26,729 bases of DNA, from contig CAYJVV010000001.1 in the NCBI GenBank assembly GCA_964373755.1, forward strand, positions 1-26,729, given 5' to 3'. This document shows positions 641 to 25,329 of this stretch, in pieces. This stretch comes from an uncultured archaeon. Its GTDB lineage: Archaea > Aenigmatarchaeota > Aenigmatarchaeia > GW2011-AR5. Made by a program: the position numbers and the translations under genes. Under the pieces are notes generated by a model, which worked only from the letters and a program-made list of their open reading frames with translations, ran no database searches and had not been told where the DNA came from. How positions within the stretch are numbered: the stretch's first letter is position 1; every line of letters begins with the position of its first letter.

Positions 641-1040
641 CTCTACAATTAATCTTTGAGAAGAAGTAATTAAAACTATACATTAAGCATCAAGTACTTT
701 CTCGAACGCTAGAAAATTCTGTTCCATATGCTCTTTAAACTTAGAAGGAATATTTCTTCCAGTCAAATCTCTATCAAGTGTATCATGTACTATACGATTA
801 CTATACACAACGTGAACGCCATCATCTTCTCCTCTAACTTTCAGTCTATCTTGTGGAATTACAATATAAGACATGGTAGATTTTCCGCGGCATGTCCAGC
901 CTGCTAATGTGTACCAATCTCTATCAGGATCATATCGCACAACTCTCCTTGTGACTTCTCCCACAGAGTCCTGTTGCCTTATACGTACATCCATCCCGAT
1001 CTCCAACAAATCTACAGCCATATTCTCAGTCTCTACAATT
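641..1040. repeat. Exact 10-bp direct repeat CTCTACAATT (641-650 and 1031-1040) flanking an orphan ORF
   Basis: Read directly. One copy overlaps base 1 of tRNA-Leu and the other contains the rpoD stop codon. Confidence 0.85.
683..1021 (-). CDS. Hypothetical protein (orphan, 112 aa)
   Basis: Intact ORF co-oriented between rpoD and tRNA-Leu; no family recognised. Confidence 0.7.
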   Translation of the reverse strand: MAVDLLEIGMDVRIRQQDSVGEVTRRVVRYDPDRDWYTLAGWTCRGKSTMSYIVIPQDRLKVRGEDDGVHVVYSNRIVHDTLDRDLTGRNIPSKFKEHMEQNFLAFEKVLDA

Positions 1041-1806
1041 TCTTTTTTGCTTCAGAGAGGAAATTTTCTGCGCTATTCTCAAGAACGTCTAAGGCAGAAG
1101 AGACTATTTCTTCAGGCTTCAAACCTGATACTGATTCTACTGTGAATATAAAAGAATTCTCGTCAGCCTTAACGGTCACGCCGTCGCTTACTTCAACACA
1201 TTTCATGCAAAGTATGCAATTTGCTTCCTTCGCAACCCTTGGCTTTCCATCGCGTTTCTCAAAAACATGAGTTGGGCATACATCAACTATTACATTATCT
1301 GCTTTCTCCGGATTTACACGAACAATAGGAAAGTTCTGGTATCCTACAACAGCTGCCTGCCATTTCACATGCTCCTTGCCGAAACCCAGTTGCGCTGTGG
1401 CTGAGAACTTCAATTTTTGTTTTTCAAGAAGCTCTACGATTGGTATGTTTAGATCGAGTACGCTGGCACCATCGCTTTTCATGTCGCCAGCATTGACAAT
1501 GCATGGGCCTTCTTTTTCAATGATAAATGTGACTTCGCAGTTAGCACAGCCTTTGCCTCCACACTTGCAATCTTCCTTAAGCCTGAACATCTTTGAGTCG
1601 AATGTCAAGGGGATTAAACCGAGTCGGTGGGCAATAACCTCGTCAAAAAGTCCTGATGTATTTTCCTCAAAATACACCTCTTCAATGGCCATTATCGGTA
1701 TCTCGCCAAACATTGTCCTGCGCAGCGCGTTAGCGAATGCAAAATCTATCCCTTCTATGACGAATTTCAATTTTGCATCTTTTTGCTCAAGAATTTTTAC
1801 TTGCAT
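1033..1806 (-). CDS. rpoD: DNA-directed RNA polymerase subunit D (Rpo3) with ferredoxin-like Fe-S domain
   Basis: FANALRR, ENTSGLFDEVIAHRLGLIPL, ATAQLGFGKEHVKWQ, VCP...CILCMKC; follows rps11. Confidence 0.97.
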   Translation of the reverse strand: MQVKILEQKDAKLKFVIEGIDFAFANALRRTMFGEIPIMAIEEVYFEENTSGLFDEVIAHRLGLIPLTFDSKMFRLKEDCKCGGKGCANCEVTFIIEKEGPCIVNAGDMKSDGASVLDLNIPIVELLEKQKLKFSATAQLGFGKEHVKWQAAVVGYQNFPIVRVNPEKADNVIVDVCPTHVFEKRDGKPRVAKEANCILCMKCVEVSDGVTVKADENSFIFTVESVSGLKPEEIVSSALDVLENSAENFLSEAKKKL

Positions 1807-1847
1807 TATTTCATCTCCGAACTAAAAATTTGACAGAAACGTTTAAA

Positions 1848-2237
1848 TTACACACGCCTTCCACGTCTGCCGCCCTTCTTCTTGCAGCCATCGTGAGGTA
1901 TTGGTGTCACGTCTTCTATAGAACCTATCCTGAAGCCAGCACGTGCTAGAGCCCTTATGGCTGGTTGCGCTCCCTGGCCAGGCATCTTTGATTTTATTCC
2001 GCCAGGCGCCCTGATGCGTATATGCAGATTTGTTATGCCTTGTGCCAATGCCTTTTCTGCTGCCTTTCTCGAAGCGACCATGGCTGTGAAAGGCTTGCCC
2101 TTATTCATGTCCTTGTCAGATACCATGCCGCCTGAAACAGTGGTAATGGTCTCGCTGCCAGTTATGTCAGTGATATGCACTATAGTATTGTTAACTGAAG
2201 AAAATATGTGCGCAACTCCCCATCTTTCTTTATCCAT
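1848..2237 (-). CDS. rps11: 30S ribosomal protein S11 (uS11)
   Basis: [22 protein letters not shown]...[22 protein letters not shown]. Start moved to the ATG at 2237, which has an upstream GGTGA SD. Confidence 0.97.
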
Positions 2238-2742
2238 TTTGTTCACCACTTGCTTGCTTTGCCTGTTCAATAACAGCTGTTTTTATCTTTGAGCTCAAGG
2301 AAATATTTCCTTCTTCATCGTGTTTGACTATGTAGCTGGGCCATCTGATCCTTCTTTTATTGACTAAAATATGGCCATGAACAATAAGCTGCCTTGCCTG
2401 TTTAGGGCTGTTAGCAAGGCCTTTTTTATGCACAACTGTCTGCAATCTGCGTGAAAGTATATGATTAAGATTCGTTTCAAGCACTTCATCAAGGGTCTGG
2501 CATTTTATTCCAAGCTTGTTTAATTTTTCTAAAAGCTCTTTTTCTTTTTTCTCATCATGATGTGCCTGTAAATCCCTAGCACGTCTCCTGAAGTCACGAA
2601 GTACGGCTTCTGCTTTCCAAATTTCCTTTTTCCTACGTAAGCCATACTCTTGCTCTAGCTTCTTTTCTCTTTCTAGCCTGTTCTTGTCGTAAGGCTTCTG
2701 CGGCCGCGAATATTTTCTCTCCTGTCTTTTCGGGTGTCCCAT
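2230..2742 (-). CDS. rps4: 30S ribosomal protein S4 (uS4)
   Basis: [19 protein letters not shown]...[10 protein letters not shown]...[28 protein letters not shown]. Confidence 0.97.
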
Positions 2743-2744
2743 GA

Positions 2745-3020
2745 TTAAAGAATCTCCAGGGTTCTTAGAAAGGCAATTCTCATGACTTGTCTTGAATATT
2801 CTTTTGCAGTCGGTGATGTTTCTCTTACAGACAATTTATAATTGTCTAATGCATCTTTACCGTAGACATATGAAATTATAGATTCTTGAAATCTTTGACG
2901 ATATTGTATCAAAGCCTCTTTTCCACCAGTTCTATAAACATTGGAAGTTCTATGTCTAAGACCCGAAATAATAATCTTTGGCCTGTAACTTGGACTCTTT
3001 AAAGTAGCGGATTTTGTCAT
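2745..3020 (-). CDS. Hypothetical protein (orphan, 91 aa) between rps13 and rps4
   Basis: Intact ORF with a TAATG overlap with the rps13 stop; ends 2 nt before the rps4 ATG; AT-rich. Confidence 0.65.
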   Translation of the reverse strand: MTKSATLKSPSYRPKIIISGLRHRTSNVYRTGGKEALIQYRQRFQESIISYVYGKDALDNYKLSVRETSPTAKEYSRQVMRIAFLRTLEIL

Positions 3021-3520
3021 TATTTCTTCTCCTCTTTTGCAGCAGGTTTTGCGGCTTGCTGAATTTTCTTCTTCGCGACGCCTACTGTCTTCTGCGTCCT
3101 GAACGAGCTTCTTGTTCTCTGACCGCGGACAGGCAACCCAAACTCATGTCTTACGCCTTTGTAGGCATGCATCCTTTTTAGCATGTTTATGTCTTCCATT
3201 TTCTTGAACTGCAGCTCAGAACCGTGTACGTGCACATTGGTACCAGTCTCGATATCCTTTCTCCTGTTCATAATCCACATCGGCAGTTCGCTGTTCTCTT
3301 TTCCAAGGGATTTTACAAAGGCTTCAAGGGTCTTTATCTCTGTTTCTGTCATAGCACCAAGTTTCTTTTTCCCGTCTATGCCTGTTTTCTGAAGTATTGC
3401 ATTAGTAAGCATGAAGCTGATACCAGGGATTCTTCTCAGGCTTCTGCTAACAGAAAGCTCGCCGTTTATATCGGTTGCAAGGAATCTTACAATCTTTCTA
3501 ATTTCAGTTTTCTGTTCCAT
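3020..3520 (-). CDS. rps13: 30S ribosomal protein S13 (uS13)
   Basis: NRRKDIETG...DINMLKRMHAYKGVRHEFGLPVRGQRTRS. Likely start at 3520 (TGATG overlap with rpl24e). Confidence 0.96.
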   Translation of the reverse strand: MEQKTEIRKIVRFLATDINGELSVSRSLRRIPGISFMLTNAILQKTGIDGKKKLGAMTETEIKTLEAFVKSLGKENSELPMWIMNRRKDIETGTNVHVHGSELQFKKMEDINMLKRMHAYKGVRHEFGLPVRGQRTRSSFRTQKTVGVAKKKIQQAAKPAAKEEKK

Positions 3521-3684
3521 CAAACCGCTCTTGCCCATTTGAATTTCCTTGGATCTCTTCCAAGCTTAATCATATTTTTTTCGCATTTCAACGAATCGAA
3601 CCACATAATTTTGCCGGTCTTTGCAATTACCATCTTTCCTGTTCCTTGCTCAATTCTTTTTGAACAGAAACTGCAGTTTGCCAT
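3520..3684 (-). CDS. rpl24e: 50S ribosomal protein L24e
   Basis: Hand translation (not in the ORF track): [54 protein letters not shown]; follows rps28e. Confidence 0.95.
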
Positions 3685-3685
3685 T

Positions 3686-3892: not shown

Positions 3893-3904
3893 AGTATCAC
3901 ATTA

Positions 3905-4486
3905 TTAATGTCCCAGATATCGCTGTGGAGGAATTCTTTTTGGTCGTCTGAAGATGCCAACTTCTGTCTCATAGACTGTATTTTCACTTTCCCACTTTAA
4001 CACCCTTTCCATGTCGGCGCCTGGTATAACCAAAACAGGTCTTTTTGAAATATACACAGCTTCGTGATCTGTAAAATCCACCGTTTCTTGCTTTGCCAAT
4101 AATGAAAATGGATGATCATTGTCTATCATCATTCGAGCCAAATGCTCATCCATTCTTAAACGCCTAGCCATATCGTCTGAAGAATAGCCACCGAAGACTG
4201 AAATAACTGTTGCGTATGTTAATTTCAATAAGTTTGGATCATATACTCTTGCATTTTTGTTTCTTAATATTCTCCTTAATGAAAATCTATGATAACGATC
4301 ACTTTCTTCTAACGATTGCCAGTTTTCTGGAACTATTTCATGGAATCTTGAAGTATCAGGAACATAAGCCTGGTCTAGTGTAGCGACAATCCTAGCTCTG
4401 TCTAAAGGTATCAGCCCTGGATGCTTTTCAAGTCCATAAGCCAGTGTTTCTATTGCTGCTCTGTCCAAGGTATTTAATCTCTTCAT
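3905..4486 (-). CDS. Hypothetical protein (orphan, about 193 aa) between rpl7ae and rps28e; possible HTH segment
   Basis: Intact ORF (ATG 4486; upstream in-frame GTG 4495). GYSSDDMARRLRMDEHLARMMI resembles an HTH. Confidence 0.7.
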   Translation of the reverse strand: MKRLNTLDRAAIETLAYGLEKHPGLIPLDRARIVATLDQAYVPDTSRFHEIVPENWQSLEESDRYHRFSLRRILRNKNARVYDPNLLKLTYATVISVFGGYSSDDMARRLRMDEHLARMMIDNDHPFSLLAKQETVDFTDHEAVYISKRPVLVIPGADMERVLKWESENTVYETEVGIFRRPKRIPPQRYLGH

Positions 4487-4522
4487 ATTCAACACTCACA
4501 AAGTAAAGTGAAAAAGCCGAAC

Positions 4523-4837: not shown

Positions 4838-4936
4838 TTAACACACCTTGTCTCAATTACAAAGCTGTATTAAGAAACAAAACTATTAAAATTAACCTTT
4901 TTAAGGATTTTATCTGAAAGATTGTTGTGATTAAAG

Positions 4937-5110
4937 ATGGAAGATAGAAGCAAGTTCCTGAAGGTGAAATGCGAGAAGTGCAAGAACGAGCAGATAATAT
5001 TCAACAGATGTGCTACCGTAGTCAAATGCCTTGTTTGCGATTCTATCTTGGCTGAACCTACAGGCGGCAAGGCCAACATTCAGGCAAGCATTCTGCAGGT
5101 TCTAGGTTGA
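4937..5110 (+). CDS. rps27e: 30S ribosomal protein S27e
   Basis: Hand translation: MEDRSKFLKVKCEKCKNEQIIFNRCATVVKCLVCDSILAEPTGGKANIQASILQVLG. Confidence 0.96.
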   Translation: MEDRSKFLKVKCEKCKNEQIIFNRCATVVKCLVCDSILAEPTGGKANIQASILQVLG

Positions 5111-5181
5111 TGAGAGGGAAGCAATGGTATGAAACACTATGTGTTCGTGTTGTTCTCCTTCTACTCTTTCAGGTGAATTTT

Positions 5182-6080: not shown

Positions 6081-6090
6081 TGTTGATTTT

Positions 6091-7128: not shown

Positions 7129-7145
7129 ATTCTTCTGGTAATTAT

Positions 7146-7739: not shown

Positions 7740-8621
7740 TTAAACTAATTTAACAACTGCTCTTCTCATTTCTTCTGCTATCTGTTCTGCTCTTGTTTTA
7801 ACTACTGCTTTTTCAACTTCTTCTTTTGCTTGTTCAATCTTAAGGAGTTCCAATGCATAAGGTTTTGCTATTCTTTCCAATTGGTCCGCATTAATATCAA
7901 ATCTACCCAATACGGATTGTTTAGTTTTAGCAGCGCCAACAAAATCATGTCGTACAGATCCATCCACAATTTCGGATACAACATTTTCATAATAAGGAGC
8001 ACGTGATTTAATTCTGTTTTTATTATATGCAAGTAAAGTTTTAACTTTTAATTGTTCAATCTCGCGGTTTCCGCCTAGAAGTTGTTCATATTCAAACATT
8101 TTTCTATTAGTTTCTTCCAATTGTTTTGCTCTTATGCGAGCTTCTTTTTCTTTTAATTTTACTTCTTGTTCACTCAACTTTCTATCTAATTCTGCTCTTT
8201 CTTCAGTGGAAAGACTATCATAATTTATAGGTCTTATAAGTGGCATGTCATGACGATCAGCATCATCAAGTTCTGCTGGTCTCTTTACTTCTCTGCGTGA
8301 TCTTGCAGCTTTATAGCCTACAAATCCAAAACCTGCTGCTAATATCGTTGCTATTCCTGTAGCAACTGCATTAGCCACTTTATATTTAGTATCATTTACT
8401 TTAGTATCATTTGCAATAGAACCTTGCGATAACTTTGATGCATAAGGTCTTTCTCCTAAAGTAAAAGCTAGCCGCAGTTCTTTTCGATAAGGTTCTTCTG
8501 TACCAATAGTTCTAGTTTCTTGAATAGGAGTACCAGAAATATTATTATAAGCAACAGCAGAGTTTAGTGTAGCTGCAGCAAATAAACCAGTGGCAACTCC
8601 TAACCTTTTAACCCATCCCAT
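7740..8621 (-). CDS. Hypothetical membrane protein (orphan, 293 aa)
   Basis: Long AT-rich ORF with a hydrophobic N-terminus, a second hydrophobic segment (VANAVATGIATILAAGFGFVGY) and an E/K-rich helical tail. Confidence 0.8.
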   Translation of the reverse strand: MGWVKRLGVATGLFAAATLNSAVAYNNISGTPIQETRTIGTEEPYRKELRLAFTLGERPYASKLSQGSIANDTKVNDTKYKVANAVATGIATILAAGFGFVGYKAARSRREVKRPAELDDADRHDMPLIRPINYDSLSTEERAELDRKLSEQEVKLKEKEARIRAKQLEETNRKMFEYEQLLGGNREIEQLKVKTLLAYNKNRIKSRAPYYENVVSEIVDGSVRHDFVGAAKTKQSVLGRFDINADQLERIAKPYALELLKIEQAKEEVEKAVVKTRAEQIAEEMRRAVVKLV

Positions 8622-8740: not shown

Positions 8741-9523
8741 TTACGTAAGCCTTACAAGGCCCCCTGTTTTTCTTGCACGATGAAAAACAATCTTGTAAGC
8801 CAGAAGCGAGAAGACAGCATAAGCAACAGTTATCAAAAATCCTTCTATCAAAACGGCTGAATTCATAGTTCCTGCTGAGACTAAGCTCCTTGTCGCTTCG
8901 AAGATGTTTGTGAAAGGCATAAGTTTTGATACAACTTGAACTGGCTCCGGGAATATGGAAACAGGGTAGAAGGGTGCGGAAAGCAATATGAAGGCCTGCA
9001 ATGCGGACCAAGCAAGAAAGCTGTATTCTCTACCTGCTGCAATAATCATGGCGGCAAGTAGTATTGCCAATGTCAACGAAGCAAACAACGTCAAGGCTGA
9101 TAAAATTAGTATATCTGATGCGTTAGTCGCTATCAATGAGAGGCCAAACATATAGTAAGATATTCCAAGCATCAACAGCATTATTCCAATGGATATGATT
9201 ATTGCAAATATCATGCGTGCTGTGAGATACTCAAACTCGGTTATGCCTGTAACGAGTATTTGTTTTAAGCTGCCAGACCATGTATCGTCATTCATCTGCA
9301 TGTTTACACTGCTTTGCGCAAGATAAGCAAAGTTCCAGAATATGTTGGCAACTAGAACAACAAGTCCGGCTTCTACAGCCTTATCTCGAACAAAAACAGA
9401 AAACAAGCCCCATATAATTATTGTAGTTAGTGGAAAGTAAATGAATTCTGCAATCTTCCATCTAGAATTCTTGAATACAAACATGTCGTAATAGATCAAC
9501 GCAGCTATTTTGTACAATTTCAT
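8741..9523 (-). CDS. ABC-2 type transporter permease
   Basis: About 6 TM segments; WSGSLKQILVT and SAPFYPVSIFPEPVQ.VSKLMPFT motifs; ATGA overlap with the ATPase. Confidence 0.9.
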   Translation of the reverse strand: MKLYKIAALIYYDMFVFKNSRWKIAEFIYFPLTTIIIWGLFSVFVRDKAVEAGLVVLVANIFWNFAYLAQSSVNMQMNDDTWSGSLKQILVTGITEFEYLTARMIFAIIISIGIMLLMLGISYYMFGLSLIATNASDILILSALTLFASLTLAILLAAMIIAAGREYSFLAWSALQAFILLSAPFYPVSIFPEPVQVVSKLMPFTNIFEATRSLVSAGTMNSAVLIEGFLITVAYAVFSLLAYKIVFHRARKTGGLVRLT

Positions 9524-10440
9524 TTCTTGTCACCAAGTATTTTTACGAAATAGTCCTCGAGTGTTGGTTTCCTGCTCTCAATTTCGGTTATTTCTATGCC
9601 TTTTTCAGCAAGCATTGAGAGTGTTTCGCTTATGTTCTCATCAGCAGGCAGTTCTTTTTTCAAAATATTTCCTTTTATGACAAAACCTCTTTTCCTTAGA
9701 AACTCCTTGTTCTTCACGCTTCTGACTTTAATTATCAGGTCGTATGTGGCAAATTTTCTTAGCTTAACGGATTCAACACTTCCAATATCAATTATTCTGC
9801 CTTTGTTAATGAAAGCTATCCTGTCACATAGCTGTTCCAATTCATGCATGTAATGACTTGTCAGTATGATAGTGGTGCCAAGCTCCTTGTTTATTCTCTT
9901 TATCTCATTTCTAACCTTGATTGCAATGTCAGGATCTAAGCCCACCGTAGGCTCATCAAGAAGCAAAAGTTCAGGACTATTCAATAGTGCTTTAGCCATT
10001 ATGAGCCGCATTCTTTCGCCTGTAGAGATATTGCTAAACTTGCTTTCCATAATGCGCTCTATCTCAAAGAATTTTGCCAGCTTTTTTGTTTCTGTTATTC
10101 TCTTGTTCTTTGGAATGCCATATAATCGTCCGTGAAACTCAAGTATGTCTTTTACTTTCAATGCCCAATGAAATCTTGTTTCTCCTGAAACAAAATTCAT
10201 CTTTTCTGCCAATTCGCGGTTTTTTAGTGGATTCTTTCCAAAGATTTTTACATTTCCAGAGTCTGGAAATAAGATACCGATTAATATATTGAGCAATGTA
10301 GATTTTCCCGCGCCGTTGGGACCAAGAAGACCGAATATCTCACCTTCTTCTATGTCAAATGAAATATCTTTCAAGGCGAAGAAATCTTTACCCTGGTATT
10401 TGAACTTTTTAGATACATTCTCAACTTCGACAACAGACAT
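9520..10440 (-). CDS. ABC transporter ATP-binding protein (DrrA/CcmA-like)
   Basis: Walker A GPNGAGKST, signature ISTGE, Walker B LLLLDEPTVGLD, H-loop TSHYM. Confidence 0.95.
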   Translation of the reverse strand: MSVVEVENVSKKFKYQGKDFFALKDISFDIEEGEIFGLLGPNGAGKSTLLNILIGILFPDSGNVKIFGKNPLKNRELAEKMNFVSGETRFHWALKVKDILEFHGRLYGIPKNKRITETKKLAKFFEIERIMESKFSNISTGERMRLIMAKALLNSPELLLLDEPTVGLDPDIAIKVRNEIKRINKELGTTIILTSHYMHELEQLCDRIAFINKGRIIDIGSVESVKLRKFATYDLIIKVRSVKNKEFLRKRGFVIKGNILKKELPADENISETLSMLAEKGIEITEIESRKPTLEDYFVKILGDKK

Positions 10441-11002: not shown

Positions 11003-11323
11003 TCATCTCGTTTCTACAGGCTCTCCTAAGAAAGTTCTAATAGTTACAAATTGATCTCTTAAACGTCTTTGACTTTCAGCAGCTTGCTGATACCAGTCTA
11101 AATGTATTGCTTTTTCTTCTGGCAAAGCTTCTATGGCTTCATAACCAAAACCTAATTGTAAAGGTTGGTTGCTCCGTAAAATCACATGATTTCCTACTAA
11201 ACTACTCTCAGTCCAAGGTAGTGGAGGGTTGTAGCCAATCAGTTTTGCATCTGTTTTAATAAGATCTGCTAAAGGCATTGCAGCTTCGCTTGTAAATCTA
11301 AGTTTGTAAACAGTATCACCCAT
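11003..11323 (-). CDS. Hypothetical protein (orphan, 106 aa) upstream of rpl10e
   Basis: Intact ORF ending 5 nt before the rpl10e ATG; no family recognised. Confidence 0.65.
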   Translation of the reverse strand: MGDTVYKLRFTSEAAMPLADLIKTDAKLIGYNPPLPWTESSLVGNHVILRSNQPLQLGFGYEAIEALPEEKAIHLDWYQQAAESQRRLRDQFVTIRTFLGEPVETR

Positions 11324-12805: not shown

Positions 12806-12973
12806 TTAGAATTTCTCTGCATCCTCGATGAGCATATTGGGTATGTCACCATCAAGAACGGCGTATTTGAGCCTGCATTTGTTGCATATGATCACATTTT
12901 TTTTAGCTTCGTACTTTATTTTGCCCTTGCACTTCGGGCAAACAAGTATATCAAGAAAATCTTTTTTCAGCAT
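12806..12973 (-). CDS. Trm112-family methyltransferase activator
   Basis: MLKKDFLDILVCPKCKG.......IICNKC...YAVLDGDIPNMLIEDA; start placed at ATG 12973. Confidence 0.9.
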   Translation of the reverse strand: MLKKDFLDILVCPKCKGKIKYEAKKNVIICNKCRLKYAVLDGDIPNMLIEDAEKF

Positions 12974-13272
12974 TTTTTCACTCTCGCTTTCCATTCTAAT
13001 TTAGCAGATTCAAGGAAATCTTTTGCAATGGGACTGTAAGCTGTGAATGTAGGTCCTCTGTCAAAACCTATTATAGCCACATCAACTTCTCCTTGGAAAA
13101 GTGCATAGCCACCTTGATTAGATCTTTCTAACGAATAACCATGAAGTAGAGCTTCTTCACCAATCATTTTAAACCACTCGTATCCTTTTCTGAAAGTTTT
13201 CGCTCCAGTGAGAAGTCCACGAAACATTCGTCTTATTTTTCCATCTCCCATGAGAATCGTTCTATCTTCCAT
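12967..13272 (-). CDS. Hypothetical protein (orphan, 101 aa) between cbf5 and Trm112
   Basis: Intact ORF whose stop overlaps the Trm112 start (ATGCTGA). Confidence 0.65.
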   Translation of the reverse strand: MEDRTILMGDGKIRRMFRGLLTGAKTFRKGYEWFKMIGEEALLHGYSLERSNQGGYALFQGEVDVAIIGFDRGPTFTAYSPIAKDFLESAKLEWKARVKKC

Positions 13273-14274: not shown

Positions 14275-14394
14275 AATAAGAACTTGTCACAAAAGTACAA
14301 AAACAGAATATTAAATCATTTATTTGGAAGGATGGAAGGAAGAAAGTGTAGATAGAGGAAAAATAATATCTTAATCAGGAAAGAGGATTATCTG

Positions 14395-14474
14395 CAAAGA
14401 GCACAGCTCTTTGAGATGCCAGAAACCTACGGTTTTCTGAGCAGAAAGGAGAAAAACCTTGGTTTTCTCCTTCT
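14395..14474. repeat. Three adjacent inverted repeats (14395-14413, 14420-14439, 14443-14474)
   Basis: CAAAGAGC-ACA-GCTCTTTG; CAGAAACC-TAC-GGTTTTCTG; AGAAAGGAGAAAAACC-TT-GGTTTTCTCCTTCT. Confidence 0.9.
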
Positions 14475-15381: not shown

Positions 15382-15654
15382 TCAGAACAAATGCATTGCG
15401 TTTCTATAGCGCAGATAATCAAGGCCTGGTAATGCAGAACTATCCTCCATTGCTATTTTAACATATTCGTCTGGATTAACTGTTTTATCAATAAATGTCC
15501 CTAATGTTATTCTATATGCAAATATTCTGAAAGGCCAAATACCGCGTGTTTGCATTACTAACTCATAAGACGCCTCAAATGTCGCATCTCCAAAAGAAAT
15601 TATCTGTTCTCTTTCAGGCAATCGTTTTCTTGATAATACTAATCTTTCTCTCAT
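15382..15654 (-). CDS. Hypothetical protein (orphan, 90 aa) between gins and rpl44e
   Basis: Intact ORF starting 3 nt after the gins stop and ending 9 nt before the rpl44e ATG. Confidence 0.65.
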   Translation of the reverse strand: MRERLVLSRKRLPEREQIISFGDATFEASYELVMQTRGIWPFRIFAYRITLGTFIDKTVNPDEYVKIAMEDSSALPGLDYLRYRNAMHLF

Positions 15655-16196: not shown

Positions 16197-17543
16197 CTAA
16201 TGCATTCTGCCTTTGTGCAGTTCAAGACCATGTGCTGTCGAGAATTGCTTCTTGCAGACAAGGCAGGAGAATCCTTGGAGTTTCACGCGCTCTTTTTTCC
16301 TTAAGCCCATTGTCCTGAAAGGATAATTTACAGGATTTTTTATTGTTATCCTTTCCGTTCTGCCCTTGCATACAATATCTGGTTGGCATATCCCAATGTC
16401 TTTGTAGTACATCGCAACATCACAGTTTGCCGGTGGTTTTGCTGCGTACTGCTGTTGATAGCGCAGCTGAGCAATAACATAATTTCTGGGAAGTGGTGGT
16501 TTGTTCTTTTCATTCGACTGAAATACCTTGTCCTCTATTTCTTCCCATTTCCAGTTCATCGTTTTCAGGAAATTTATCAGTACGAAAAGGCTTCTTTTCC
16601 TGCCGTCTTGCATCCCTGAAAGAACGAGTTTAATACATGGCGGGAAGAGTTCTTCTCCTATCTTTTTCTCCCATTGTATCCTTGGCTTTTCAGTTTCCTT
16701 TTTTTTCTCTTTTTTTCGCATAGCATGCCAGTCCATAGCAGCAAGAAATAGCGACTCGGCAGAGTTTTCCTCGGATACAAAGAATTCCGTTTCGGTCTCA
16801 ATTTTTTCAGGCCTTGCGGCTGATTCTGAAAATGTCATTATGTCTTTAGAGCTTATTGGCAACGATACCAGCCAAGTCTTTTCATTAAAGCTGTAAGGAG
16901 CACGAAACATGTGTCGTACTCCCCAGTTTTTCTCTACTTCAACAAAATAAAATGGATTAAGTTTGCTTGGCGGCTCGGCCAGCGAGTTTATGAGTTCAAT
17001 TGCCCCTTTTGATTTAACAAGTTCGCTCATGAGTTTTTTTGCTATTTTTTTCCTTATGTAAGCAGTCAAGATTCTGGGGGCATCTGGGTAAAGTTTTTGC
17101 AGAGGCTTGTAATCTACCTCCTTGGGGAAGCTTTCCCAAGGTAAACACAAATGGAAACCCCTTCTCCCAGAGAACTTTATACCATAATTCTTGATTCCAT
17201 GCTTTCTAAACAGTTTGCAGATAAGCATTGCGGTTATTTTTGACTCTTCCAAGCTGATTTTTGAGTCTATGTCTATTATCAGGTCCCATCCAGTGCGCAG
17301 TTTTTCATAATTATCCTGACGCAATGCCATTGGGTTGCTCCAGCGTTCAACAGAGAGATGGAATGAAGTCACTCCATTTTTAGCCATCTGGAATACATCT
17401 GTAGGAAACTGAAGGATGTTAGGTCTCTTGTCGTATGAACCGTCCCAGAAAGCACCAGCAATTTCACGGTTCTTTGAGCTTTTGACTAAAAAATCAGCTA
17501 CATCTTTCCTGGAGTAGTATTCAAGGATCTTTTGGCGGTTCAT
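16197..17543 (-). CDS. priSL: Fused DNA primase PriS-PriL with a C-terminal C2H2 zinc finger
   Basis: PriS motifs DLIIDID and KFSGRRGFHL; PriL-CTD Fe-S region FPPCIK...DGRKR.LF.LINFL...PANC...ICQPD.VC; terminal CLVC-x12-H-x4-H. Confidence 0.92.
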   Translation of the reverse strand: MNRQKILEYYSRKDVADFLVKSSKNREIAGAFWDGSYDKRPNILQFPTDVFQMAKNGVTSFHLSVERWSNPMALRQDNYEKLRTGWDLIIDIDSKISLEESKITAMLICKLFRKHGIKNYGIKFSGRRGFHLCLPWESFPKEVDYKPLQKLYPDAPRILTAYIRKKIAKKLMSELVKSKGAIELINSLAEPPSKLNPFYFVEVEKNWGVRHMFRAPYSFNEKTWLVSLPISSKDIMTFSESAARPEKIETETEFFVSEENSAESLFLAAMDWHAMRKKEKKKETEKPRIQWEKKIGEELFPPCIKLVLSGMQDGRKRSLFVLINFLKTMNWKWEEIEDKVFQSNEKNKPPLPRNYVIAQLRYQQQYAAKPPANCDVAMYYKDIGICQPDIVCKGRTERITIKNPVNYPFRTMGLRKKERVKLQGFSCLVCKKQFSTAHGLELHKGRMH

Positions 17544-17616: not shown

Positions 17617-17982
17617 ATGTATGTTGATATTCGACACTCTATGGCACATCCAATAAGACCACTCTTAAGAGATGATCCGGAGTACTCTCTGGTCGGCACA
17701 CAAAGACGGGGTCTCTTCGGAAGGGAAGAAGTTTACGTACATATACGAAATGGAGAGTTTTTAGGAGCTAGCGAAATAAGTTATGGATTGCTTGGTGAGA
17801 AGGGCGCCGACATCCGCCCACCTGGTTCATGTGGGTCTTCAGAAGACGGCATCAAAGAATATTTCTTAGGATTAGGTGTGCCTGAAGATAAATATAGAGC
17901 AGTGATAGAGCCTGCTGTCAAAGTTCATTTTGGAAAAAGGCGGAAAATGCATCTTCTGTTCTTATTTAGATTACTTTACTAA
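17617..17982 (+). CDS. Hypothetical protein (orphan, 121 aa), antisense to its neighbours
   Basis: Intact ORF fills the rps15-priSL gap; its last 12 nt overlap the rps15 3' end. Confidence 0.65.
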   Translation: MYVDIRHSMAHPIRPLLRDDPEYSLVGTQRRGLFGREEVYVHIRNGEFLGASEISYGLLGEKGADIRPPGSCGSSEDGIKEYFLGLGVPEDKYRAVIEPAVKVHFGKRRKMHLLFLFRLLY

Positions 17983-18420
17983 CAATCTTGTCTGGTCTAT
18001 AGAATATTTCCAGTCTCGTGGCAATTTACCTGTTCTTGCATAATACTTACCTAGTCTTCGTATCTTGGATTCGACAAGCTCAACCCCATGTATTGCTTTT
18101 GCATCAGCCTTGTTTTCTTCAAGATGCCTGTGCAGGTTTACTGCCTGTTTCATCAAGTTATACAAATCTTCAGGAACTACTTTTTTCGTTGTCTTTTCCA
18201 TAATCTTCACTATGCGTAGATTGAAAACTCGAACGTCCGGAATGCCATATTGATCTCTCAATACAATTCCTATCTGGCTTGATGACTTGCCTTCTTTCGC
18301 AAGCTTAACAATCAGTTTTTCTGTTTCTTCCTTGTCGTATCCGAGCCATTCCTGGCGTATGCGCTTGATCGGTTTTTTGCTACCAGATCTGCCATGTTTT
18401 CTTGAATGCATTCTAGCCAT
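17971..18420 (-). CDS. rps15: 30S ribosomal protein S15 (uS15)
   Basis: MARMHSRKHGRSGSKKP, IGIVLRDQYGIPDV, PEDLYNLMKQAVNLHRHL, ESKIRRLGKYY. Confidence 0.97.
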   Translation of the reverse strand: MARMHSRKHGRSGSKKPIKRIRQEWLGYDKEETEKLIVKLAKEGKSSSQIGIVLRDQYGIPDVRVFNLRIVKIMEKTTKKVVPEDLYNLMKQAVNLHRHLEENKADAKAIHGVELVESKIRRLGKYYARTGKLPRDWKYSIDQTRLLVK

Positions 18421-18662
18421 TAAGATGACCTCTTTTCAAACTGATGAAGTTTCATTACTTTGCTTCCAGTATCCGAAATGCCTCTAATTCCATAAGTCTC
18501 ATTATTCGCTCTAATTCCTCCTGGAACTGAAACATAGGTAAAATCCCGATCACAAGGAGGGCAGAAGGCAACTCCTTTATCATTGATACCTTTTCTTGGA
18601 TCGCCTTTCACGTATATCAAAGGATGCTGACAACTTCTTGTATCAATAAGTGTTTTTGACAT
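18420..18662 (-). CDS. Hypothetical protein (orphan, 80 aa), possible zinc-binding
   Basis: Starts directly after the bud32 stop (TAAATG) and overlaps the rps15 start (TAATG); CQH...CPPC. Confidence 0.65.
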   Translation of the reverse strand: MSKTLIDTRSCQHPLIYVKGDPRKGINDKGVAFCPPCDRDFTYVSVPGGIRANNETYGIRGISDTGSKVMKLHQFEKRSS

Positions 18663-20673: not shown

Positions 20674-20847
20674 ATGTCAGAAAATAATAACCACATGTCT
20701 ACAATACGTATCTCCAAGAAAGCAAAAAAGATGCTTGAAGCTTTCGGACGGTTTTCTGATACTTATGAGATTATAATTGTGAAATTAGCTGAACACTACA
20801 AAAACTGCAAAAAGCACAGAAAGGTGAAAAATAATGGTACGTCTTGA
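20674..20847 (+). CDS. Small ribbon-helix-helix (RHH/antitoxin-like) DNA-binding protein
   Basis: Hand translation: MSENNNHMSTIRISKKAKKMLEAFGRFSDTYEIIIVKLAEHYKNCKKHRKVKNNGTS. STIRIS (beta strand)...DTYEIII fits the archaeal T(I)xISxExKxxL...eTYdxII pattern. Overlaps smc by 14 nt; start could be 20695. Confidence 0.7.
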   Translation: MSENNNHMSTIRISKKAKKMLEAFGRFSDTYEIIIVKLAEHYKNCKKHRKVKNNGTS

Positions 20848-23257
20848 GAGGATAACTATGCAGGGCTTCAAGAGCTTTGCTGGCAAGGTTACAATTCCAT
20901 TTCCTGCAGGCTTCAATATCGTGTGTGGACCAAACGGCACAGGTAAGTCTAACATAGTCGACGCGCTGACGTTTGTCTTGGGCACCTCGTCTGCAAGAAG
21001 CATTCGAGCACAAAAACTTCAGAATCTTATCTTCAACGGTGGCACTGACAAGAAACCAGCTGAATTTTGTGAAGTTACTCTTTATTTGGACAATTCTGAC
21101 AACAAAATACCGATAAACGAAAATGAAGTCAAGGTCACGAGAAGAATAACGCGCTCCGGGATAAGCATCTACAAGCTCAACGGCCGGACAGTTACAAGGA
21201 GCAAGATACAAGATTTGCTGGCAAACGCAAACATGTCTTCTGACGGCTATAACATCATAATGCAGGGTGATGTTACCAAGATAATCGAGATGGGCCTGCA
21301 GGAAAGAAGGGAGATAATAGATGAAGTTGCTGGTATAAAGGAATTTGATGAGAAGCGTGAGAAAGCAACAAGAGAACTGGAGCGCGTCGAACTTCGTGTC
21401 AGAGAAAATATGATCGTTGTTGCTGAGAAACAGAAATATGTTCAGCGACTGAAGTCAGAAAAGGAAAATGCTGAAAAGTACGCGAATTTCAGCGAAAAAC
21501 TGCAAATTTATCGCGCATCACTGCTGCACAAAAAACTAGCAGAAGCAGAAGAAAAGGCAGGAATAATAGACAAGGAAATCGATGAAAAAACTTCGCTTTT
21601 TGAAGAAAAATCTAAGATATTTACAGAATCGGAGAAAGATTTGGAAACAAAGGAAAAGTTGATGAGGAAAATAGACGAGGAAATAATGCAGAAGACAAAA
21701 AATATTGATATCCTAAGAAAAGCTGATGCTATTCGAACAGAGATACTCAGGAAGAAAGATAGGATAGACTTTAACGAGAGAGAAATATCTAGATTAAAGG
21801 AATTCGAAACGCCTGAAAGGAACATTGCGATAAAGGAGATACTTAACATGAAGTCTCCTGGAATTCATGGAACCCTTGATTCTTTAATTGGTGCTCCAAG
21901 CGAATATTCTACAGCAATCGAAGTAGCAGTAGGCAGGCATTCAAAAGACATCGTCGTTTCAGATCATGAAATAGCCACAAGCTGCATAAAGCACTTGAAA
22001 GCGAGGAAAATTGGGCGTGCTCGCTTCCTGCCGCTGGACAGGATAAGAGGAAGAGAAAAGAAGGAGTACAAAGGAAAGGAAAATATTATTGGCTATGCCA
22101 TAGATTTGGTGAAATACAATAGAAAATTCTCACCTGCTGTAGAATTCGTTCTTGGCTCTACTATTGTTGTGAAAAATATAGACATTGCAAAGAAAATAAA
22201 AGGCTATCGTGTCGTGACTTTAGACGGCGATCTAGTCGAACCGTCAGGAGCTATGATAGGCGGATTCTATAGGAAAACGCACCGTGAATCTTTTGCACCC
22301 AAAATAAGGCAGCTTGAAGAAGATAGCGAGAAACTCGAAGACGAAATAAGTGCCTTGGACAAGGAATTAGGGAAATATAATTTACAGGATGAAGGAGAGA
22401 CTGCAAATGTACGCGAAGACAAGGTCAAAATAGAAAAAGAAATCGAGATTGCTAGAAAGAAATGGAAAGAAATGTTCGAGGAAAAGATGATCCAGCAGAA
22501 TGGCATAAGCAGGTTAAAGATCGAAAAAGCGAGAATAGAAGCTAACCTCGAAAACCTGAATATTGAAATGGAAGAGTTCAAAGATGTCAAGGATTTTGAA
22601 GAAGGATCAATTGATGTTCTGCAAGAAAAAGTGAGGTATTTTGTAACAGAGATTAACAGACTTGGCCCCGTGAATATGAAAGCAATAGAAGAGTACAAGA
22701 CAATAAATGTGGAATTCGAAGAATTGAAAAAAAACCTCAATAAATTGCTTGAAGAGAAAAATGCGATAGTGAGTATAGCAGAAGACGTTGAGAAGAAAAG
22801 ATATGACAAATTTATGGAAACTTTCAACGAGATAGCAGCCAAGTTCTCAACAACTTATTATGATATGGCAGGCGGTACTGGAAGATTAAGGCTTGAAGAA
22901 GAAAACAAAATTGATTCCGGGCTAATTATCGAAGCTAGTCCATCAGGGAAGAAAGTTCTGAATTTGGATAGCATGTCTGGCGGGGAAAAAACACTGACGT
23001 CTCTTGCGTTTCTTTTTGCCATCCTCCAACATTATCTGACACCATTTTACGTGCTAGATGAAGTTGATGCGGCTTTGGACAAGGCAAACACAAAGAAGAT
23101 AGCAGATCTCATAAAGAAATACTCGAAAAGCGTTCAGTTCATCGTAATAAGTCACAACGACCTTACAATAGCCGAAGCAGACAAAGTTTTCGGTGTGTCA
23201 ATGGAAAACGGCGTGTCAAAGGTTTTTGGAATAGAATTGCCCGTGGCGAGTGAATAG
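20834..23257 (+). CDS. smc: Chromosome segregation protein SMC, short form (807 aa)
   Basis: GPNGTGKSN, hinge (GIHGTL...IGRARFLPLD...VTLDGDLVEPSGAMIGG), GPVN, MSGGEKT, YVLDEVDAALD, ISHN. Confidence 0.96.
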   Translation: MVRLERITMQGFKSFAGKVTIPFPAGFNIVCGPNGTGKSNIVDALTFVLGTSSARSIRAQKLQNLIFNGGTDKKPAEFCEVTLYLDNSDNKIPINENEVKVTRRITRSGISIYKLNGRTVTRSKIQDLLANANMSSDGYNIIMQGDVTKIIEMGLQERREIIDEVAGIKEFDEKREKATRELERVELRVRENMIVVAEKQKYVQRLKSEKENAEKYANFSEKLQIYRASLLHKKLAEAEEKAGIIDKEIDEKTSLFEEKSKIFTESEKDLETKEKLMRKIDEEIMQKTKNIDILRKADAIRTEILRKKDRIDFNEREISRLKEFETPERNIAIKEILNMKSPGIHGTLDSLIGAPSEYSTAIEVAVGRHSKDIVVSDHEIATSCIKHLKARKIGRARFLPLDRIRGREKKEYKGKENIIGYAIDLVKYNRKFSPAVEFVLGSTIVVKNIDIAKKIKGYRVVTLDGDLVEPSGAMIGGFYRKTHRESFAPKIRQLEEDSEKLEDEISALDKELGKYNLQDEGETANVREDKVKIEKEIEIARKKWKEMFEEKMIQQNGISRLKIEKARIEANLENLNIEMEEFKDVKDFEEGSIDVLQEKVRYFVTEINRLGPVNMKAIEEYKTINVEFEELKKNLNKLLEEKNAIVSIAEDVEKKRYDKFMETFNEIAAKFSTTYYDMAGGTGRLRLEEENKIDSGLIIEASPSGKKVLNLDSMSGGEKTLTSLAFLFAILQHYLTPFYVLDEVDAALDKANTKKIADLIKKYSKSVQFIVISHNDLTIAEADKVFGVSMENGVSKVFGIELPVASE

Positions 23258-23259
23258 AA

Positions 23260-23919
23260 ATGGTAGATGAAGCTAGATTGATAAGGACAATAGTATTGGG
23301 TGCGGACTGGCAGGAAGTACTAGAAAATATAATTGTCGAAGAGGACCTGAATCCTCTTGTAATAGATCTTGTAAAACTTTCGGACGCCTTCATGAATTAT
23401 ATGCAGGAAATAAAGAAATTTGATTTTCGCATACCAGCCAGGTTCATACTTGTAGCCGCAATACTACTGAGAATGAAGTGTGAGCTGCTTTTGGAGGAAG
23501 AGGAAGAAAAAGCAAGAAAAGAAATAGAAAAACTTCCAGAGATAAGCCTAGAGAACATACCACAACTGTCTGCACCACTTATAAGAAAACCTATAAGGAA
23601 GGTAACGCTTTCAGAGCTGATAACTGCGCTGAACAAAGCCTTGGAATTCAAGGAGAAGAAAGAAACTAAGCAGATAAGGCTTAGAAGAGCAGTTGAAACA
23701 CTTATCGAGCCTGAAGAGGATGTAGAGATAAAGATCTCCACTCTGCTTGGAAAGATTTCAAAAGCTGGCGAAATAAAGTTCTCCGATCTTGTTCCAGATT
23801 GGAAAAGGAATGAAATAGTCGACACGTTCATGCCGCTTTTGTACCTCTGCATGCGCAGCAGGATTTACTGTGATCAGCCTGAAATGTTCAAGGAGATATT
23901 CATCAAAATTCGTGAGTAA
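23260..23919 (+). CDS. scpA: Segregation and condensation protein A (kleisin)
   Basis: W...L..II.EEDLNP..IDLVKLSDAF, ARFILVAAILLRMKCE, VTLSELITAL, VDTFMPLLYL. Confidence 0.92.
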   Translation: MVDEARLIRTIVLGADWQEVLENIIVEEDLNPLVIDLVKLSDAFMNYMQEIKKFDFRIPARFILVAAILLRMKCELLLEEEEEKARKEIEKLPEISLENIPQLSAPLIRKPIRKVTLSELITALNKALEFKEKKETKQIRLRRAVETLIEPEEDVEIKISTLLGKISKAGEIKFSDLVPDWKRNEIVDTFMPLLYLCMRSRIYCDQPEMFKEIFIKIRE

Positions 23920-23927
23920 GATTTTCC

Positions 23928-24449
23928 ATGAATGAGAAAACGCAGCAAAGGCTTGCATTGCTTGAAGCGGCTCTTTTCACAACTACGGAACCCTTGAATA
24001 TGGAAGATCTCCAGAAGACAACTAAGATAAGGCGAGAAGAACTAGAAAAACTGGTGAAGATATTAGAAGAAAAATATTCGTCAGCTGAGAGCGGCATAAA
24101 ACTTTCAACTGTTGGCGGTTACAGGCTAATGGTTAAGGAAGCCTTTGAGGAAAAAGTTTCTCATCTCACTCCACATGCCGATCTTTCCCGTGGCTTGCTG
24201 AGAGTACTTTCAATTATAGCTTATCACGAGCCTATAAAGCAGGCAGATATTGTGAAGATAGTTGGCAACCGCGTTTATGATTATGTGAAAGAACTTGAGG
24301 GAAAAGGTCTAGTTAAGACTGAGAAAAAGTCAAGAACAAAGATCCTTTCATTAACACCACAATTCGAGGAATATTTTGGCGTGAAGAAGAAATTCCTGAA
24401 GGAAAAAATAGACGAATTTGACAATGACAAGCAGGATAAACAAGAATAA
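23928..24449 (+). CDS. scpB: Segregation and condensation protein B
   Basis: LLEAALFTTTEPL, LSRGLLRVLSIIAYHEPIKQADIVKIVG, YFG. Confidence 0.95.
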   Translation: MNEKTQQRLALLEAALFTTTEPLNMEDLQKTTKIRREELEKLVKILEEKYSSAESGIKLSTVGGYRLMVKEAFEEKVSHLTPHADLSRGLLRVLSIIAYHEPIKQADIVKIVGNRVYDYVKELEGKGLVKTEKKSRTKILSLTPQFEEYFGVKKKFLKEKIDEFDNDKQDKQE

Positions 24450-25040
24450 TCAGTTTATTTTGCCTGAAATTTTTATTATCTCGCCAAGGACTTCCTCAGG
24501 TGCCCTGTTACCGTCAACAATATAAGTTTCTGGGAACAGGTTTTTCATCGACAAATAATTCCTTCTTATCTGCTCAAGTTTATGCTCTTCTTCAAAGAGT
24601 TCTACATGCGGTCTTGCTTTTTTCATTCTTTCCATGCAAATCTTAGGCTGCGTGTCTATAAGAATTGTAATGTGTGGTTTTCTAAAGTAGCTGTTTAACT
24701 GTTTCAATACAGGAAGTGAAACTTCAAGACTTCCAAAGGCATAGGAAGAAAGAATATACCTATCACAAATAACTAATTTGCCTTTTTTAAGAGTTGGTTC
24801 AATTTCGCTTTGCAAATGATGTGCTCTGTCTGCAGCGAAAAGCATCTGTAGCGCGAGAGGAGATGTGTTCCACTCTTTTTTTAAGCAAGATTTTATCAAA
24901 CCGCCCATCAAACCTTCTGTTGGCTCTTTTGTAAGAACAGCATCTTTATTTTTGCTGATAAAATAATTCCTTAGAAGAGTAGCTTGTGTTGTTATTCCAG
25001 ATCCGTCTAGACCTTCAAAAACAATGAATTTTCCTGGCAT
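24450..25040 (-). CDS. tmk: Thymidylate kinase (dTMP kinase) with an atypical P-loop
   Basis: FIVFEGLDGSGITTQ, TKEPT, LFAADRAHH, ICDRYILSS.AFG; the Walker A Lys position reads Ile. Confidence 0.9.
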   Translation of the reverse strand: MPGKFIVFEGLDGSGITTQATLLRNYFISKNKDAVLTKEPTEGLMGGLIKSCLKKEWNTSPLALQMLFAADRAHHLQSEIEPTLKKGKLVICDRYILSSYAFGSLEVSLPVLKQLNSYFRKPHITILIDTQPKICMERMKKARPHVELFEEEHKLEQIRRNYLSMKNLFPETYIVDGNRAPEEVLGEIIKISGKIN

Positions 25041-25116
25041 TAGCTTTACTTACGCACTTACGTATAAATAAATGAGAAAAGGTAAAAGGTTTAAAAAGAA
25101 AAATTACCTTTCAAGT

Positions 25117-25329
25117 CTATTCTGGAAGGTATTTGTCAAGAGTACGTGCAAGGCGTTCTTGAGCAATAGATCCTACATAATCTGTTGTTGGTTCTGCAGG
25201 TAGACACATTCCCTCGGCTGTTCTATCCACTACAGTTCTTGTATAATCTCCCAATCTTTTTGATATATGGTCAGGTACTGAAAATCTAACTCCATTTACT
25301 TCTACAAAAACTTCCATTTCGTATGTCAT
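25117..25329 (-). CDS. Hypothetical protein (orphan, 70 aa) between cutA and tmk
   Basis: Intact ORF with an upstream GAGGTG SD. Confidence 0.6.
   Translation of the reverse strand: MTYEMEVFVEVNGVRFSVPDHISKRLGDYTRTVVDRTAEGMCLPAEPTTDYVGSIAQERLARTLDKYLPE

Follow-up and report, generated by a model that had tools for sequence, protein, structure and literature searches.

Orphan genes lying singly between the housekeeping genes of a reduced archaeon probably reflect ordinary ORFan turnover in a compact genome

We analysed a 26,729-nt stretch of DNA from an uncultured archaeon (contig CAYJVV010000001.1 of assembly GCA_964373755.1, the whole stretch being called the window), which is contig C1 of the 816-kb, 98-contig and 91% complete genome G000, and in which ten orphan open reading frames (ORFs), ORPH1 to ORPH10, lie singly between housekeeping genes. 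Single-gene gain, loss, replacement and relocation at gene boundaries are real and unusually frequent between this genome and its relatives, and the ten ORFs appear to be genuine protein-coding, taxonomically restricted genes that would form a local sample of a genome-wide class amounting to about one tenth of all ORFs. We consider it probable that they reflect the ordinary turnover of orphan genes (ORFans) in a compact DPANN genome, where the junction-clean survivors are kept and recombination between lineages spreads the contents of the slots. The initial annotation had proposed instead that a process inserts single promoterless genes precisely at gene boundaries, so that they hitch-hike on highly expressed operons; such a dedicated process accounts for the evidence less well than do ORFan dynamics in a genome subject to compaction and recombination.

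All ten ORFs of the initial annotation were recovered (Table 1), and their housekeeping neighbours are as it had named them, namely, rpoD, S11, S4, S13, L24e, S28e, L7Ae, eIF2a, S2, L10e, Cbf5, L44e, GINS, the primase, S15, a Bud32-like kinase, SMC/ScpAB, Tmk and CutA. An open frame of equal length arose in 0 to 73 of 5000 mononucleotide shuffles per ORF (0-1.5%), the highest count (73) being that of ORPH10, the least secure gene of the set. None of the ten matched Pfam or NCBIfam at E <= 0.1 or a PADLOC defence family at E <= 0.05, and nine were unmatched in PHROGs, the sole match being a weak one of ORPH9 to the zinc ribbon of a Lar-like family (E 0.005). The ratio of nonsynonymous to synonymous change, expressed as rates (dN/dS) or as proportions (pN/pS), ranged from 0.06 to 0.71 in the orphans and was always below 1. 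In six of the seven orphan lineages measured it was 0.26-0.71, compared with 0.03-0.26 in core genes, the exception being the counterpart of ORPH5 (0.06); the orphans evolve several-fold faster than core genes. Since the frames are longer than chance would allow, ORPH3 and ORPH8 belong to conserved families with confident structure models, and dN/dS or pN/pS is below 1, we take the ten ORFs to be real genes. Several orphan junctions are covered without mismatch by independent contigs from four public DNA runs of two studies; in the Logan contigs of these runs, which are short, the listed joints had sides of less than 30 nt and none bracketed an orphan. No RNA run was listed among the public runs that carry the sequence.

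Table 1. Orphan ORFs of the window and the operon with a recent exchange (positions are those of the window; GC3, GC content at third codon positions).
Feature	Position	Strand	Length (aa)	Junctions and remarks	GC3
ORPH1	683..1021	-	112	11 nt past the rpoD stop	0.30
ORPH2	2745..3020	-	91	S13 stop overlapped (TAATG); S4 starts 2 nt further on	0.23
ORPH3	3905..4486	-	193	between L7Ae and S28e; alternative GTG start at 4495	
ORPH4	7740..8621	-	293	convergent with S2, 6 nt apart	0.136 (window minimum)
ORPH5	11003..11323	-	106	ATGA overlap with the L10e start	0.21
ORPH6	12967..13272	-	101	between Cbf5 and Trm112	0.25
ORPH7	15382..15654	-	90	3 nt past the GINS stop; abuts the L44e start (0 nt)	0.24
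ORPH8	17617..17982	+	121	antisense, primase and S15 on either side; final 12 nt lie within the 3' end of S15	
ORPH9	18420..18662	-	80	Cys/His-containing; TAAATG after Bud32, TAATG into S15	0.26
ORPH10	25117..25329	-	70	between CutA and Tmk	0.18
ABC-2 permease and ABC ATPase operon	8741..10440	-		tract of recent inter-lineage exchange	

The tight or coupled junctions reported at the outset (TAATG, TAAATG and short gaps) were confirmed from the sequence, and the downstream gaps are 0-12 nt for six orphans. Three of the gene pairs described as split by an orphan do adjoin in other genera, with gaps of 8-38 nt for S4|S13, 8-23 nt for S28e|L7Ae and 2 nt for L44e|GINS; the fourth, rpoD|tRNA-Leu, was not borne out, as neither ARAGORN nor Rfam (gathering threshold; for the gap 242-682 also at E <= 1) detected a tRNA in the window. 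Positions 620-638 of the minus strand resemble a tRNA acceptor and D arm. The term promoterless appears strictly apt only for ORPH1, ORPH2, ORPH7 and ORPH9; the other six are preceded by spacers of 19-119 nt, in some of which TATA-like words occur, such as TTATAAATA about 30 nt upstream of ORPH5.

The AT-richness first seen in spot counts is real and stronger than those counts had implied. GC3 is 0.14-0.33 in the orphans compared with 0.31-0.52 in 28 neighbouring core genes (Mann-Whitney p = 3e-7), and it falls below 0.30 in eight of the ten, compared with 15% of all G000 ORFs (p = 8e-6). At second codon positions (GC2) the orphans are richer in GC than core genes, the values for first (GC1), second and third positions being about 0.49/0.40/0.24 in orphans and 0.48/0.31/0.42 in core genes. 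Codon usage differs accordingly from that of core genes, A/T-ending codons being favoured for every amino acid (shares of 0.38 vs 0.10 for TTA, 0.75 vs 0.40 for CAA and 0.62 vs 0.36 for AGA), and the proteins are high in Arg (1.74-fold), Tyr and Asp and low in Lys (0.58-fold) and Ile. A frame artefact was ruled out, since reading core genes in a shifted or antisense frame never gives the GC1/GC2/GC3 pattern of the orphans. Of 1016 crude G000 ORFs, low GC3 was found in 109 of the 306 variable ones (missing from, or less than 50% identical to, the congener G002) and in 43 of the 710 conserved ones, and GC3 rises with conservation in both G000 and G002. The low GC3 of the orphans is the tail of this genome-wide gradient with conservation and is not special to the window. 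Five consecutive Pfam-less genes of up to 772 aa on another contig (C27:599-6504) carry the same signature (GC1 about 0.53, GC2 0.39-0.51, GC3 0.19-0.23), hence the class is not limited to small singletons. Overall, G000 has 40.3% GC and G002 44.7% (4.4 points apart), with GC3 about 0.10 apart whatever the conservation class, pointing to a recent change of composition in one of the two lineages.

We compared the syntenic regions of nine relatives, including the congeners G001 and G002 and the further genomes G004, G005, G010 and G050, as well as the whole genome of G002. Core genes are 80-97% identical within the genus and their order is kept across the family; between G001 and G002 their synonymous divergence (dS) is about 0.1-0.18 and their dN/dS 0.04-0.16. 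Among 70 genomes of the order, eight of the ten orphans were counted as restricted to the genus or the genome, the exceptions being ORPH3 and ORPH8, which belong to small DPANN-wide families without annotation. Gene order in the relatives does reveal differences in presence and absence, yet seven of the ten orphans have a counterpart kept in the same slot of G001 or G002, with 30-65% identity or a bare motif in common. To that extent they are old genes in place, the outcome that had been named as speaking against recent insertion; however, their codon usage is not core-like, and ORPH3 and ORPH8 do not behave in this way.

The counterparts grade from clear homologues to barely recognisable ones. 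The ORPH1 homologues in both congeners share only 30-34% identity with it, compared with 85% for the adjacent rpoD (dN/dS 0.68 between G001 and G002). ORPH4, whose hydrophobic N-terminus and charged, helix-like C-terminal half make it look like a membrane-anchored protein with a charged helical tail, has homologues in place in both congeners at 39-48% identity (dN/dS 0.51 between G001 and G002), while at the S2|L10e junction of G005 both ORPH4 and the neighbouring ABC operon are missing and the gap is 39 nt. ORPH6 is 61% identical to its homologue in G002 (pN/pS 0.35). In that genome the counterpart (L032:8124-8669) is a single frame of 181 aa with two tandem domain copies, 61% and 27% identical to ORPH6. 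ORPH7 has a homologue in place in G001 (65% identity), and its slot in G010, a genome of another genus, contains a 50-aa match of 47%; the homologue of ORPH9, which looks like a zinc ribbon, is in place in G001 (58% identity). In G002 the slot of ORPH7 is filled with unalignable DNA of multi-copy short repeats, and ORPH9 was not found, its 144-nt slot holding repeat elements; both genes appear to have been lost there. ORPH5 matches the same-slot ORFs of G001 and G002 only marginally (E 0.007 and 0.02 over 27 aa), and a word-index search of 5.8 billion proteins returned only the query, although the counterparts in G001 and G002 are under strong purifying selection (dN/dS 0.06). No match of ORPH2 was found in the 70 genomes at E <= 0.05, and none of ORPH10 was credible (best E 0.0015, inside a 420-aa frame); the slot of ORPH10 in G002 holds an unrelated 108-aa ORF.

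The S4|S13 slot is a particularly sharp case. G001 and G002 carry ORFs of 77 aa and 100 aa here, which have in common with ORPH2 only a GGK-type motif (tblastx E 4e-5 to 5e-3, without nucleotide similarity). The two congeners are nearly identical up to the S13 stop and again from about 6 nt before the S4 ATG, and unalignable in between, suggesting that the contents of this slot were wholly exchanged between genomes whose flanks differ by a dS of only about 0.1-0.18.

ORPH3 and ORPH8 have histories of another kind. ORPH3 belongs to a family of about 190 aa from various DPANN genomes, with 20 homologues of 38-49% identity and invariant motifs, none of which (0 of 20) has a Pfam domain. It was not found in G001 or G002, where the L7Ae|S28e gap is about 100 nt, and the same junction measures 8-23 nt in three other genera. 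The family neighbourhoods in G004 and three public contigs differ in every genome, the neighbours being an M23 peptidase and an XPD-like helicase, type IV pilus genes, SepF and prefoldin, or a thermosome gene. These comparisons point to a gain of ORPH3 in the window genome. The ORPH8 family is small (14 representatives among 1.8 billion proteins), and a word-index protein search returned the query only. The ORPH8 homologue of G001 and G002 (dN/dS 0.26 between them) is flanked by two genes that in G000 (contig C61) have only 33 nt between them, the primase|S15 slot of G002 is empty (63 nt), and G050, from another genus, has a homologue in the S15|primase slot, but in a co-directional arrangement. 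ORPH8 would thus have moved between slots, with a change of orientation. Its C-terminal 17 aa (17932-17982) form an extension lacking in the homologues, which runs 12 nt into the convergent S15. AlphaFold2 models of the two proteins are confident (predicted local distance difference test, pLDDT, 90 and predicted template modelling score 0.86 for ORPH3; pLDDT 89.6 for ORPH8). Nevertheless, the ORPH3 model had no fold match in the PDB (best Foldseek E 0.11, best VIA Z 4.5) and in a protein atlas only a feature match of 0.78, the ORPH8 model had no specific match (Foldseek E at least 0.11, VIA Z 6.2 on generic beta-meanders), and neither matched a nuclease fold above background. Both proteins are predicted to adopt confident folds without known relatives.

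Turnover of this kind is found genome-wide. Conserved neighbours that are syntenic in G000 and G002 gave 530 junctions for a survey. Of these, 271 are tight in both genomes, 153 contain DNA that is at least partly homologous, and 106 differ completely: 35 carry DNA in each genome but without detectable homology, whereas the filling is confined to G000 in 23 and to G002 in 48. One ORF makes up the filling in 36 of the resulting 71 presence/absence cases, the empty allele often measuring -5 to +12 nt, and 13 cases, nearly all in G002, are repeat-rich. Across the nine relatives, junction gaps vary from 2 to 1688 nt, and unrelated small ORFs occupy different slots according to genus. The clearest single case is a 189-nt insertion in G002 between the S28e stop and the L24e start, consisting of a 62-codon ORF plus 2 nt on each side and bounded by AATG repeats; the empty allele of G000 is the exact product of a deletion between them. 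G002 also has an 800-nt insertion of two ORFs between rpoD and S11. That the ten orphans sit singly between housekeeping genes is correct, but the pattern is genome-wide, and the window is not enriched in differing junctions (8 of 29, compared with 98 of 501 elsewhere; Fisher p = 0.34). As the window rate does not differ from that of the rest of the genome, highly expressed operons are not preferred. Variable single ORFs between co-directional conserved genes lie on the same strand as these in 34 of 53 cases (24 of 31 for those of low GC3), compared with 75% for conserved genes.

Exchange between lineages can be demonstrated for one tract of the window. The ABC operon (Table 1) is 97% identical between G000 and G002, with a dS of 0.12-0.15 as opposed to 0.6 to more than 2 for every other window gene, while between G001 and G002, genomes otherwise nearly identical, its dS is 0.9-1.2. 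The operon was demonstrably exchanged between species by recent recombination, and the breakpoints adjoin ORPH4 and L10e.

We searched for machinery that might move single genes, covering tyrosine and serine recombinases, DDE transposases, the TnpB-type domain PF07282, the reverse transcriptase PF00078 and the Y1 transposase PF01797. The tyrosine recombinase family PF00589 had no match in G000, G001 or G002, whereas all 14 control genomes matched, and PF01609, PF00239, PF07282 and PF00078 were likewise not found in the three congeners but were found in control genomes. The Y1 transposase was not detected in G000; IS200-type copies occur three times in G001 and at three contig ends in G002, one G001 gene (C60:18063-18407) lying just past the Na/H antiporter in the syntenic region. 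Palindromic repeats of 30-100 nt, present in tens of copies, occupy the L44e|GINS, S28e|L7Ae and S15|Bud32 slots and part of the S4|S13 slot of G002 (L031-L032), where one unit encodes the first ~27 residues of the slot ORF, and the Y1 transposase probably accounts for such repeats in G001 and G002. Related repeats in G000 lie in one spacer (14275-14474) and in putative tRNA-intron gaps, and no repeat copies were found inside the orphans. The flanks of the ten orphans have no motif in common beyond AT-rich words, and no common end motif emerged, so the original observation that no integrase or shared att motif is visible was borne out by both family searches and flank comparison. Target-site duplications were rejected, since the flanking direct repeats are within chance; the only one of at least 10 bp is at ORPH1 (641-650 and 1031-1040), for which the chance is about 1.25% per locus and about 12% per ten-locus set, and it was not found in the congeners. 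A paralogous or multi-copy mobile family was also rejected, as tblastn and blastn searches of the orphans and their slots against the whole of G000 gave only self-matches. No viral hallmark gene or integrase was found near the orphans, whose neighbours are all cellular housekeeping genes.

Taken as ordinary ORFan turnover, these observations would be explained as follows. The orphans would diverge in place under weak constraint, would at times be lost to invading short repeats or replaced by very distant alleles, and would occasionally be gained or move to another junction, gain by illegitimate recombination being rare and single-gene loss frequent. Selection would keep only those insertions and deletions (indels) that spare the stop and start codons of the neighbours, because coding sequence takes up about 85% of the genome and the core genes in it are essential, and together with a deletion bias this would give rise to TAATG-type junctions; stop/start microhomology may assist both deletion and insertion. 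Tight junctions are expected from such survivorship in an 85%-coding genome without any targeting. Homologous recombination through the conserved flanking genes would likely spread new slot contents, as it did for the ABC operon. Of the proposed hitch-hiking, what remains is that co-directional orphans are probably transcribed with the host operon; ORPH8, on the strand opposite to its neighbours, cannot hitch-hike on their operon.

Several observations weigh against this explanation. The mean orphan GC3 of about 0.24 is below the GC content of non-ORF DNA (0.365), hence simple mutational equilibrium in genes under weak selection accounts for the composition only in part. In several unrelated genomes the homologues of ORPH3, too, have a lower GC3 than the genes around them, a hint that they come from a common foreign or mobile pool, and together with the composition of the orphans this keeps such a pool plausible as their source. 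Finally, if random illegitimate recombination were followed by slow trimming, less clean events would be expected at a dS of about 0.1 than the 189-nt ORF-only indel with its TAA..AATG microhomology and the many single-ORF indels whose empty alleles measure -5 to +12 nt.

The source of the genes might be viral or plasmid-borne, the orphans being domesticated or leftover genes of DPANN viruses or plasmids in the manner of morons. We regard this as possible though rather unlikely; it would refine the origin of the orphans and is compatible with ORFan turnover. The AT-rich third positions and atypical amino-acid composition fit, since bacterial ORFans and phage genes have such composition traits in common (PMC12315717), and so do the low-GC3 ORPH3 relatives in varied contexts of several hosts and the weak Lar-like match of ORPH9. 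However, nine of the ten orphans have no PHROG relative, and a scan of 2.9 million viral contigs revealed no relative of the ORPH3 family, DPANN viruses being poorly sampled. In addition, neither an integrase nor a viral hallmark lies near the orphans, and the low-GC3 islands on contigs C27 and C37 have no integrase or recognisable virus genes, most of their proteins being Pfam-less.

Vertical inheritance alone, in which the orphans are old lineage-specific genes and the absences and fillers reflect differential loss and divergence beyond recognition, seems to us unlikely. It accords with the same-slot counterparts of seven orphans within the genus and with the presence of ORPH7 and ORPH8 in the same slots in other genera. 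In addition, a dN/dS of 0.5-0.7 with a dS above 1.5 (G000 vs G002) predicts identities of 20-40% or lower, loss is documented in G002, and the empty S28e|L24e allele of G000 matches a deletion between two AATG repeats. On the other hand, the ORPH3 family sits in a new neighbourhood in each genome, and is not found in the congeners, while the L7Ae|S28e pair is only 8-23 nt apart in three other genera, ORPH8 homologues occupy two slots, each empty in the other genome, and the S4|S13 fillers of G001 and G002 are unalignable between flanks at a dS of about 0.1-0.18. Also, the ORPH5 counterparts evolve at a dN/dS of 0.06 between G001 and G002, yet are almost unrecognisable in comparison with G000.

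A dedicated process that targets junctions, through TAA-N-ATG microhomology or an unknown recombinase, and moves promoterless single-ORF cassettes is in our view improbable, and we give still somewhat less credence to the specific idea that the TAA-N-ATG junctions of compact DPANN operons are themselves recombination sites for such cassettes. The insertion at gene boundaries that had been proposed does correspond to real single-gene presence/absence, replacement and relocation, and the ORF-only 189-nt insertion of G002 bounded by AATG, the 36 single-ORF cases among 71 presence/absence junctions with their nearly exact empty alleles, the replacement at S4|S13 bounded exactly at gene ends, and the change of slot and orientation of ORPH8 would all suit targeting. 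No sign of a dedicated process was seen, however: the ten junctions have no common motif, flanking repeats are no longer than chance, and recombinases, DDE transposases, TnpB-type domains and reverse transcriptases were not found in the three congeners, with Y1 only in G001 and G002. Nor are expressed operons enriched in variable junctions, the orientation bias is that of ordinary genes, each orphan is single-copy, and selection against disrupting essential neighbours predicts the same clean boundaries. If such a process were real, cassettes would be cut out, inverted, moved and exchanged at codon precision without a known integrase or transposase, and a hypervariable repertoire of small proteins would be expressed from essential operons.

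It is very unlikely that the orphans are known small housekeeping subunits (ribosomal, KEOPS or RNA-polymerase) diverged past profile detection: their sites in translation and replication operons, the 70-120 aa typical of such subunits and the position of the zinc-ribbon-like ORPH9 next to the Bud32-like kinase agree with it, but the expected L24e, Nop10, Rpb6/RpoK, S28e, L44e and Trm112 are all present and recognised, such subunits would not be missing in congeners nor evolve at a dN/dS of 0.3-0.7, and the two confident models have no known fold match. Least probable of all is that the orphans are fast-evolving non-coding spacers with chance frames, as the lack of a detectable homologue for ORPH10 and ORPH2 and the non-coding repeats in some G002 slots might suggest, given the rarity of such frames in shuffles, the conservation, purifying selection and confident folds of several, and a strong three-base periodicity (GC1 > GC2 > GC3) unlike that of shifted or antisense core frames.

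Ordinary ORFan turnover, the explanation we prefer, can be set beside several known systems. Prokaryotic ORFans, or taxonomically restricted genes, were reportedly treated by Daubin and Ochman in 2004. The orphans resemble them in being short, AT-rich, narrowly distributed and faster-evolving, with a debated native or foreign origin, and short, AT-rich ORFans of atypical composition have been described in bacteria (PMC12315717). Unlike bacterial ORFans, they belong to a DPANN genome of about 0.8 Mb, where most are dispersed as single genes and do not form atypical clusters; they are often translationally coupled within ribosomal and replication operons, and only their third codon positions are AT-rich, the first and second being rich in GC. 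For bacterial pangenomes, integration hotspots between core genes are said to have been described by Oliveira, Touchon and Rocha in 2017, and replacement and additive islands reportedly by Rodriguez-Valera. Variable content between syntenic core genes, allele replacement via homologous flanks and ancient divergent alleles are features that the orphan slots have in common with flexible genomic islets; unlike islets and hotspots, the unit here is a single gene of 200-900 nt, about one fifth of junctions are affected rather than about 1% of intervals, and there is no integrase, tRNA target or mobile-element hallmark.

Like integron cassettes, the orphans are single, mostly promoterless ORFs that need an outside promoter and come from an orphan-rich gene pool. 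Integron cassettes, however, carry attC, an imperfect inverted repeat of 55-140 bp for which orphan junctions of 0-12 nt leave no room, and in our case no IntI or other tyrosine recombinase was found, there is no cassette array, and insertion sites are many. Phage morons and the free-standing homing endonuclease genes of T4-like phages are likewise extra single genes, polymorphic and compositionally distinct, that leave their neighbours undisrupted; the orphans differ in lying on a cellular chromosome, without evidence of terminators of their own and mostly without a PHROG relative, and no GIY-YIG, HNH or LAGLIDADG nuclease domain was found in them (Pfam/NCBIfam, E <= 0.1). The orphans use the same intergenic slots as insertion sequences (IS) of the IS200/IS605 type and as repetitive extragenic palindromic (REP) sequences and miniature inverted-repeat transposable elements (MITEs), but unlike IS200/IS605 and MITEs they are single-copy, have no hairpin ends and encode no transposase. 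A role as targets of a diversity-generating retroelement is unsupported, as no PF00078 was found in the three genomes and no repeat copy in the orphans.

Beyond the orphans, the gene content of the window appears to mark a reduced archaeon of the DPANN type, the markers being a fused primase, SMC with ScpA and ScpB, and archaeal ribosomal, RNA-polymerase and KEOPS-type genes. The small and large primase subunits are fused into one protein of 448 aa (16197-17543), and SMC is only 807 aa long (20834-23257), and it retains the hinge and the two halves of the head. Upstream of L7Ae, a 69-aa ORF (4870-5079, minus strand) has no Pfam match but is in place family-wide, with 49-100% identity in seven relatives; in contrast to the orphans, its behaviour is that of a core gene yet to be recognised.

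DPANN archaea are reduced symbionts with many genes to which no function is assigned, and at stake is how such streamlined genomes acquire and test new genes. The locus shows that most change in gene content between close relatives occurs one small gene at a time, at the seams of essential genes. If this is only ORFan turnover, a known bacterial pattern is extended to DPANN archaea and its scale is documented. The folded families of ORPH3 and ORPH8, the hypervariable S13|S4 slot and the clean ORF-only indel offer handles for distinguishing selection from targeting.

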